Shown here piece by piece: positions 18,001 to 21,000 of a stretch of DNA of 64,000 nucleotides (positions within the stretch are counted from its first letter, which is position 1; each line of letters begins with the position of its first letter). The DNA comes from Escherichia coli (GTDB lineage Bacteria > Pseudomonadota > Gammaproteobacteria > Enterobacterales > Enterobacteriaceae). Location: assembly GCF_011045215.1 (NCBI RefSeq), contig NZ_CP049202.1; one strand, 5' to 3'. Position numbers: made by a program.

Positions 18001-21000
18001 ACCCCCATAATCTGAGAGAACTGCAGTTCGGTATATACCCTGAGTCAATTCATGTGCTTGACTGGTTTCATATAACGATGAGGCTGACGGTGTTAATGCA
18101 GTATGCAAAGGGACCGCAGGCATCAGAGCCAGCGACGGGCAGTAAGGTGTTATCGCTTCTGGAAAGCAGTAAACGATATCTCTGGCACGGTAATGTTGCC
18201 ACTGCACTGGATCGCATTGACGATTGCGTTATGTACTGTGATGACCATGAACTCAACTATGTAAACCTGAAAGCCCTGCAAAAACAGCTGGATGAGATGT
18301 ATACCTACATCCGCAATAATCAGATGATGATCCCAAACTACGGAGAAATGTGCCGGTATGGTGAGCCGGTTTCAACAGCGTTTGTCGAGTCAACAATCAA
18401 CGAAGTGATCGCCCGACGAATGGCCAAAAAGCAGCAGATGCAGTGGAGTAGAAAGGGCGCGCATTATTTGTTACAGACCAGAACTGCAGTCCTGAATAAC
18501 GAACTACAGGACAAATTCGCCAGTTGGTATCCCGGTTGTACGATAGACGCTCAGAGTAGAGGGACGTTATCCGCGATGGCAGCATAGCTACTGCCCCAGG
18601 GTTTTTCATGCTCTCCTTAACTGACCCAGTGAGGTGAAGACCTTTGATAATCATAATCAGTGAAATGCAACGCAAGCTTGCCACATGGACAGCAACCGCC
18701 CCGTCCCGACGGATTACACGGCTGCTGCGTCTGATAACACAACCAGAATGGCTGGCTGAAGCCGCACGGATCACCCTTTCATCAAAAAGGGCACATACCC
18801 CCGGTGTTGACGGTGTGAGTAAAGCAAAGCTACAGGCCAGACTGCCTGCTGAGTTGCAGAGACTCAGCGAAGAACTTCTCTCTGGTCACTACCAGCCTGT
18901 ACCAGCCAGACGGATTTATATCCCTAAAAGCAACGGCAAACTGCGACCACTGGGTATCCCCACGTTGCGGGAACGTATTGTTCAGCGGACCATGCTGATG
19001 GCGATGGAGCCGATATGGGAGAGTGATTTTCATGCGCTCTCGTATGGCTTCCGGCCTGAACGCAGTGTCCATCACGCGATCCGCACGGTAAAATTACAGC
19101 TCACCGACGGTAGTGAAACCCGGGGACGCTGGGTGATACAAGGGGGATCTGTCCAGCTACTTCGATACAGTACATCATCGACTGCTGATGAAAGCAGTAC
19201 GCCGCAGGCTCAGGGATCCACGCTTTATGGTCCTGCTGTGGAAAATCATTAAAGCAGGACACGTTGATGTCGAACTCTTCCGGGCGGCCAGTGAAGGTGT
19301 GCCACAGGGCGGAGTGATCTCGCCGTTGCTGTCGAACATCATGCTAAATGAGTTCGACCAGTATCTTCATGAACGTTACCTGAGCGGAAAAGCCCGGAAA
19401 GACAGCTGGTACAGGAATAACAGTATCCAGCGGGGTCGAAGCACAGCAGTCAGTGAAAACTGGCAGTGGAAACCAGCGGTGGCGTACTGCCGCTATGCCG
19501 ATGATTTCGTGCTCATCGTTAAAGGTACTAAATCACAGGCAGAAACCATCAGGGAGGAGTGTCGTAGCGTGCCCGAAGACAGTCTGAAACTCAGGCTGAA
19601 CATGGACAAGACCAGAATCACCCATGTTAACGACGGCTTTATCTTTCTGGGGCGCAGGATTATCCGCAAACGCAGTCGTTACGGCGGTATGCGGGTGGTC
19701 ACGACGATCCCACGTGATAAAGCCAGAAACTTCGCGGCATCCCTGACGACATTGTTATCAGGCAATTACAGTGAAAGCAAAATCGATATGGTTGAGATAC
19801 TCAACCGAAAGCTGAAAGGCTGAGCTGCGTTCTATCAGTTAGTTGATTTTAAAGCCAAAGTGTTCAGTTCTATCGACCGAGTTGTGTTCTGGAAGCTGGC
19901 TCACTGGCTGGCCCGAAAATACCGTAAAAGTATTGCATACCTGATGAGGTGGTGGTGTAAATCGCCAAAACTAGGTCAGAGTAAAACGTGGATTTTATTT
20001 GGTAAAACCAACCACGGGAAGCTCAACGGTGAAGTACTTTACCGGTTGGTCGGACAAGGCAAGAAGTCGTTCCGCTGGCGTGTGCCTGAGAGTAACCCTT
20101 ACCTGAGGACAGAGACCAGAAACACGTACACGTCACGATATCCGGAAGTGGCAATGGCACTAGCCAGCGTTTAGACGGAAAGCCGGATGCGCTGAAAGGT
20201 GCACGTCCGGTTTGGAGAGGAGAGACAGGGAAATAGCCCGACTACGCCCTGTCTCTTACTCTACTCAGCACATGGCAGGGCTTCGTCTATGTGGCGTTCA
20301 TCATTGATGTGTTTGCCGGATACATTGTGGGATGGAGGGCCTCATCGTCCATGGAAACGACATTTGTGCTGGATGCACTGGAGCGTCGACCGTCCGGCAC
20401 TGTCCATCACAGTGATAAGGGTTCTCAGTATGTATCACTAGCCTACACGCAACGGCTAAAGGAAGCCGGATTACTGGCATCAACAGGGAGTACAGGCGAC
20501 TCATATGACAACTCGATGGCGGAGAGCATCAATGGTCTTTACAAAGCGGAGGTAATACATCGTAAGAGCTGGAAAAACCGTGCAGAAGTGAAACTGGCCA
20601 CACTCACATGGGTGGACTGGTATAACAATCAACGCTTACTGGAAAGGCTGGGCCATATCCCTCCGTCAGAAGCAGAAAAAGCGTATTATGCTTCCATCGG
20701 AAATGATGATCTGGCAGCCTGAGTTCACAGATAAAACTCTCTCCAGGAAACAGGAAACCCAGGGCGGTTCAGATATGTCCACGATGCGTGCGTTGTGACG
20801 AAGGCTGGGATGCCTGAAAGTGTGCGTATCATCTGACAACAGCAACCGTTGGCTGGGGTGCTTATTCAAAATCTGATTTATTCAACAAAACCGCTAATCA
20901 GCTTTCCTGCAGGCCGGTCTGATTAACGGTTTTGTAGTATTCCTATCTTTACGATATATTAATCATGTTTTTTTTCATTTCCATTGGAGTGATACCAAAG

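Follow-up and report, generated by a model that had tools for sequence, protein, structure and literature searches.

Nucleotides 18617-20264 on the plus strand of the Escherichia coli sequence analysed here (64,000 nt of contig NZ_CP049202.1, hereafter the window) are a dead, 5'-truncated remnant of a group II intron similar to E.c.I4. The whole account, in which an E.c.I4-like intron residing in the orfB gene of an IS629-like element was cut beside ISEc51 and is now a functionless fossil, we hold with a probability of about 0.93. An initial annotation, made from the sequence alone, had proposed a degenerate group II intron inserted in an IS629-like orfB at 18600-20773. The alignment to E.c.I4, the match to the Rfam family Intron_gpII (RF00029), the presence of RVT_1 and GIIM domains and the IS629-like 3' exon all bear out this proposal. 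The element is where it was said to be, but the intron piece starts at 18617 and the IS ends at 20771 (Table 1).

Table 1. Coordinates of the intron remnant, its parts and its immediate neighbours in the window.
Feature	Position	Strand	Content or basis
ISEc51 (ISKra4 family), 3' fragment	18007..18616	+	Transposase C-terminus (ORF 17973-18587) and right terminal inverted repeat
Group II intron remnant, 1,648 nt	18617..20264	+	E.c.I4 positions 630-2270; first 629 nt missing
Leader remnant upstream of intron ORF	18617..18664	+	Alignment to E.c.I4 and three relatives
ltrA pseudogene (reverse transcriptase/maturase, ORF class A type)	18665..20174	+	Domains, homology
+1 frameshift, ACAA for TGA	19138..19141	+	Five-sequence alignment
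Premature stop, TGA for TGG (Trp386)	19821..19823	+	Inside maturase (X) domain; TGG in all relatives
Domain V hairpin, 34 nt	20180..20213	+	RF00029; AGC triad and GAAA tetraloop intact
Domain VI	20216..20264	+	RF00029 to model end; 3' splice site ...CUCUAC, last base 20264
3' exon	20265..20771	+	3' part of IS629-like (IS3-family) orfB, integrase core, and right IS end

E.c.I4 (also known as S.f.I1 or IntA) is an intron of ~2,270 nt found in E. coli and Shigella. Its ORF belongs to class A (PMC3552965), and it homes into IS3-family transposase genes, inserting at specific positions in the IS3-like genes of IS629, IS911, ISEc16 and ISEc31 (PMC3522654). We located E.c.I4-4 in strain 55989 by its published coordinates (PMC3522654 Table S3, Leclercq & Cordaux 2012). 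Positions 630-2271 of this copy align with window 18617-20265 at 86.7% identity over 1,649 nt (blastn), and no second E.c.I4 match was found by blastn anywhere in the 64-kb window. Chance is excluded for the match, given BLAST E-values of 0 over >1.6 kb. Comparison with known E. coli and Shigella introns, the check suggested in the initial annotation, thus places the 5' truncation at E.c.I4 position 629/630. As an intact reference we used the copy in pAA-EA11 (L002), which is 2,270 nt long and runs from its GTGTG start at L002:2372 to 4641. This copy is genuinely E.c.I4, being 99.8% identical to E.c.I4-4 of strain 55989; the window remnant is 87.6% identical to it.

The remnant is colinear with E.c.I4 over positions 630-2270 and shares its 3' splice junction, its 3' exon, the fold of domains V and VI and the sense orientation in an IS629-like orfB. 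The encoded proteins are likewise of the same kind, with reverse transcriptase and X/maturase domains in 502 residues and no endonuclease domain detected. The two differ in sequence (86.7% nucleotide and 87% amino acid identity), and the remnant lacks the first 629 nt and has an ORF that is broken twice. Introns are given the same name when their nucleotide divergence from the reference is ≤10% (PMC3522654). At 86.7% identity the window remnant diverges by >10%, and it is therefore E.c.I4-like rather than E.c.I4 sensu stricto.

Intact relatives begin with GTGTG. In the window the GUGYG 5' end and domains I-III (the EBS1/EBS2 scaffold) are absent and ISEc51 lies upstream instead; the element is therefore an incomplete group II intron, a fragment. 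By standard group II architecture, the missing 629 nt would comprise domains I-III including the exon-binding sites, and the leader remnant at 18617-18664 is probably the 5' part of domain IV. This leader contains a 6-nt tandem duplication, ATAATC at 18647-18652, which is private to the window copy in an alignment with E.c.I4 and relatives. Because of the duplication, the ORF starts 48 nt downstream of the break in the window instead of 42 nt.

The intron ends exactly where IS629-like orfB resumes, as had been proposed: its last base is 20264, and the junction is that of E.c.I4 in pAA. The 3' exon begins with TCAGCACATGGCAGGG... and is identical to the E.c.I4 3' exon in pAA at 35 of the 35 nt compared. 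The part from 20265 onwards (TCAGCACATGGCAGGGCTTCG...) codes for the integrase core of a transposase of the IS3 family, with rve, rve_3 and rve_2 domains. The exon is 91.8% identical to the host IS copy in pAA, 91.6% identical over 487 nt to 'IS629 ORF2' of Shigella flexneri pCP301, and 89.2% identical to a copy annotated as IS1203. Isoforms in ISfinder practice are >~90% identical in nucleotide or 95% identical in amino acid sequence; as just the 3' 507 nt of the host IS survive, 'IS629-like' is the safe label. Compared to the host IS of pAA, the exon lacks 15 nt at 20384, which leaves the frame unchanged, and has 7 nt duplicated at 20744. The alignment to pAA-EA11 stops at 20771, which is the IS end in that sequence.

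The homing site of E.c.I4 is a conserved region of IS3-family transposase genes, entered in sense orientation; in the window, where the 5' exon is absent, intron and IS are both on the plus strand. IS elements are the usual location of group II introns in E. coli and Shigella, and the initial annotation's appeal to this pattern is supported by the published survey (PMC3522654). A search of the window for an unoccupied E.c.I4 homing site gave no match within three mismatches. The window does contain another IS629-like, IS3-family element, an intact-looking copy of 1,310 bp at 13620-14929 on the minus strand that is 95.5% identical to the IS hosting E.c.I4 in pAA. This element has an ALIL frameshifting pseudoknot (14478-14594) and a homing site that is empty but diverged (ACCTGGG/TAAGC versus ACTTACG/TCAGC).

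The sequence on the 5' side of the intron is not IS629, again in agreement with the initial annotation. It is a fragment of ISEc51, 98.2% identical to annotated ISEc51 over 610 nt. E.c.I4 positions 1-629 and the 5' exon are absent, and the host IS has lost its entire 5' half as well, so that the intron and its host were truncated together as had been suggested. The junction at 18616/18617 is clean, with no IS629-like 5'-exon sequence between ISEc51 and the intron. ISEc51 ends at the identical base in three unrelated contexts, abutting the intron in the window, yacA in a second sequence (L006) and faeJ in a third (L003), and its terminal repeat recurs in inverted orientation at 61803-61832 (30 nt with one mismatch, of which the 23 nt at 61806-61828 are exact). 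The terminal inverted repeat of ISEc51 therefore has its outer end at position 18616.

Target-primed reverse transcription is known to yield 5'-truncated copies as a by-product, and the chromosomal D8-type relative described below is also 5'-truncated, by ~40 nt. The break could accordingly be ascribed to retromobility itself, through abortive reverse transcription, with ISEc51 adjacent by coincidence. However, the product of such an event should still be joined to an IS629-like 5' exon, which is not present here, and the intron is joined precisely to the outermost base of the ISEc51 inverted repeat. We consider this origin of the truncation very unlikely. Insertion of an IS followed by rearrangement is the most likely cause. 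A simple ISEc51 insertion with target duplication linking 61805 and 18617 was rejected, as the sequences flanking the two sites do not join up. What lies to the left of the ISEc51 left-end copy at 61806 does not derive from the intron, and additional rearrangements are therefore required. The lost 5' half of the intron was not found in the 64-kb window (the plasmid is ~214 kb in size), and when the 5' part of the D8 copy was compared to E. coli genomes, the C5 plasmid discussed below was not among the 30 matches listed.

The most economical history would consist of four steps, for which we infer the following order. An E.c.I4-like intron would have retrohomed in sense orientation into its usual target, the conserved ...DFTY/VSTW... 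codons of an IS629-like, IS3-family transposase gene. ISEc51 would then have inserted in, or recombined at, intron position 629/630, and everything on the left side, namely domains I-III of the intron and the whole 5' part of its host, would have been lost. Finally, a Tn3-family element would have inserted into ISEc51 and cut it at ~18006. ISEc51 is cut at 18006/18007 by an apparent 38-bp Tn3-family terminal repeat, GGGGTTCGCGCCCATTTCC..., whose inverted partner is at ~13489-13526.

The segment 13489-18006 looks like what remains of a Tn3-family transposon. Inverted terminal repeats of ~38 bp (~13489-13526 and 17969-18006, GGGGTTC(T)GCGCCCATTTCCTC...) mark its two ends, of which the right one truncates ISEc51, and it contains a resolvase gene (17356-17949) as well as fragments of tnpA. 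Further traces of ISEc51 are found near the right edge of the window. The left-end repeat at 61806, within the inverted copy at 61803-61832, is followed by an ORF of the PRiA4_ORF3 family (61881-62489) and a resolvase-like ORF (62625-63197), and a segment of the ISEc51 transposase is located at 63885-63998. In ISEc51 this segment lies ~56 nt upstream of the part that begins at 18007 (L006:2331-2444 versus 2501). It appears that ISEc51 was broken in two and that rearrangement moved the halves apart. A full-length E.c.I4 in an IS3-family host, with the same 3' fragment of ISEc51 immediately after it, is found in a plasmid of E. coli VL46 (L003 5157-5464) and in UMNK88-type K88 plasmids. The ISEc51 piece in this arrangement is equivalent to window 18309-18616 and 98% identical to it; its position beside IS3::E.c.I4 is probably a coincidence in IS-rich regions.

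The intron ORF is the remains of an ltrA gene. Removal of one base gives a 502-residue translation in which RVT_1 spans residues 86-330 (E 7.9e-33) and GIIM residues 356-423 (E 1.9e-10), and which is 87% identical to the intact E.c.I4 LtrA, WP_001189111. RVT_1 and GIIM were the only domains detected in this translation, in which no D/En (HNH) endonuclease domain was found; homologues have the same two Pfam domains. The class A label of the ORF is taken over from E.c.I4 (PMC3552965).

As it stands in the window, the coding sequence is divided between two ORFs in different frames, 18644-19252 and 19188-19823, the second of which ends at the TGA at 19821-19823. The initial annotation had placed a +1 frameshift in a G-run near 19143. 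Compared to intact E.c.I4 ltrA there is one extra base at ~19142, which looks like an extra G in the run, but the same five Gs (19142-19146) are found in the in-frame, ~96% identical relatives L004 and L005. Given that the run has equal length in the closest relatives, the frameshift must adjoin the G-run rather than result from slippage within it. The frameshift is thus real but lies just upstream of an unchanged run, at a site where all four aligned relatives (two E.c.I4-type and two from the sublineage described below) have TGA. The in-frame stop that had been noted at 19824 also exists and replaces the TGG codon of Trp386, but its true position is 19821-19823. In an alignment of five sequences, both lesions of the ORF, like the 6-nt duplication in the leader, are private to the window copy.

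Domains V and VI were both recognised in a covariance-model search. RF00029 matches 20178-20264 on the plus strand over the full model (1-77) with 63.2 bits (gathering score 40, E 7e-11), and this is the sole RF00029 match in the 64-kb window. The domain V-like hairpin of the initial annotation, given there as 20181-20214, is thereby confirmed with corrected limits of 20180-20213. The consensus fold of four copies reveals two compensatory G-C to A-U changes relative to E.c.I4, one in the basal pair of domain V and one in domain VI. A bulged A at 20258 (column 89 of the fold), 6 nt before the last intron base, is the candidate branch point. An Rfam scan of 15-25 kb at a permissive threshold returned the domain V/VI match and one other, to the c-di-GMP-I riboswitch at window 18780-18861 inside the reverse transcriptase ORF; at 25.1 bits against a gathering threshold of 35 (E 0.16), the latter was judged to be due to chance. 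The Rfam D1-D4 group II models gave no match even on an intact E.c.I4 copy.

The closest relatives of the window copy are found on a D8-type E. coli chromosome (L004) and an LR882059-type plasmid (L005), with 95.7-96.2% nucleotide identity to the window. They have the compensatory changes in domains V and VI in common with the window copy and are also pseudogenes, but they reside in other IS3-family hosts, carry lesions of their own and retain most or all of the 5' ribozyme. The D8 copy has a 1-nt deletion and an annotated internal stop; the LR882059 copy has a 1-nt insertion and a 137-nt deletion. The 3' exons of L004 and L005 encode WTGKRWAYLAVV and WAGNRWCYLAVV (translated from DNA), and the host whose exon encodes WTGKRWAYLAVV we take to be IS3 proper. 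The hosts of the three sublineage copies are thus an IS629-like element, IS3 proper and a third IS3-family element.

Differences between the window copy and E.c.I4 are concentrated at the third codon position (42, 26 and 134 at positions 1, 2 and 3). Nei-Gojobori estimates for this pair are dS 0.50 and dN/dS 0.13, compared to dS 0.016-0.037 and dN/dS 0.76-1.66 among the three sublineage copies. These values indicate that the lineage persisted for long as a functional intron and that its known copies have since been drifting as pseudogenes. The window copy belongs to a minor sublineage that has diverged from E.c.I4 by ~13% under purifying selection, and the three copies examined are all dead; records with matches of >95% number roughly 20, and there are intermediates at 90-95%. 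Going further, these copies may represent an unnamed sister lineage of E.c.I4, with ~13% selected divergence, that homed independently into at least three IS3-family elements and whose examined members are all neutrally decaying; we put this tentative reading at a little under even odds. If true, the sister lineage would illustrate in nature, on a small scale, the invade-then-go-extinct dynamics that have been proposed for group II introns of enterobacteria. No full-length intact protein with >88% identity was found among 5.8 billion clustered proteins (representatives of 90%-identity clusters). A partial protein from Salmonella enterica subsp. diarizonae is 92% identical, which hints that there may be a living relative outside E. 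coli.

The fragment in the window cannot splice or move and is a molecular fossil without function. It is missing 629 nt, its maturase/reverse transcriptase gene is broken twice, and its downstream exon is truncated and has lost 15 nt. Without domains I-III there can be no folding of the ribozyme and no exon recognition. These domains could in principle be supplied in trans if the remnant were the 3' half of a split but still working intron, with the 5' half encoded elsewhere. Fragmented, trans-splicing group II introns occur in organelles, and domains V and VI of the remnant are structurally intact. Against this stand the frameshift and stop in the maturase ORF, the lack of a 5' half in the window, a downstream exon that belongs to a truncated IS gene and has itself suffered a deletion, and the neutral-looking rates within the sublineage; a trans-splicing intron is an even poorer prospect than abortive reverse transcription. 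Nothing was found in favour of the reverse transcriptase fragments belonging to a retron or another non-intron class with a coincidental hairpin, the objection foreseen in the initial annotation, and this negligible alternative is refuted by the RVT_1 and GIIM domains, the 87% identity to E.c.I4 LtrA, the RF00029 match and the colinear 1.65-kb intron alignment.

Dead pieces of E.c.I4 on mobile elements have been described before: Leclercq & Cordaux (2012, PMC3522654) reported E.c.I4 fragments within large mobile elements in the genomes of E. coli and Shigella. Like these fragments, the remnant is an inactivated piece of intron on a mobile element, here a plasmid, and it was probably already dead when acquired. 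The copy on the window plasmid and its sublineage were apparently not included in the 2012 data set.

Around the remnant, a 12.35-kb block of the window matches plasmid A of E. coli strain C5 (NZ_CP010123, from a cow) at 99.85% identity, and a base-by-base comparison revealed six small differences within 17900-22000. On the C5 stretch, RefSeq lists three consecutive features in the order ISKra4, ltrA, IS3: 'ISKra4 family transposase (incomplete)', 'ltrA group II intron reverse transcriptase/maturase (frameshifted; internal stop)' and 'IS3 family transposase (incomplete, missing N-terminus)'. As these match the features described here, the remnant has already been recognised by routine annotation; it is mobile-element debris of an ordinary kind, from a known intron family. 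Our analysis confirms that a pseudogene annotation in an IS-rich plasmid region is correct and changes no concept. It adds one more data point on the death of enterobacterial group II introns, which are broken up by other mobile elements and then undergo point decay. Studies of intron extinction dynamics may find some modest use in the pattern seen in the sublineage, where divergence under selection was followed by the death of all three copies, each in a different IS3-family host.

A segment of ~3.7 kb in the window (24751-28456) is absent from the C5 plasmid, and the window therefore derives from a plasmid that is related, but not identical, to that of C5. Directly downstream of the IS end, next to a gene of the YfdX family, there is a low-GC ORF of 249 residues on the minus strand (20949-21698). 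The ORF is intact in the window and is annotated as two CDS in C5, where it is split because of two 1-nt indels, at 20968 and 21262. From a reading of its sequence, the C-terminus of the predicted protein appears to resemble AraC-family regulators.
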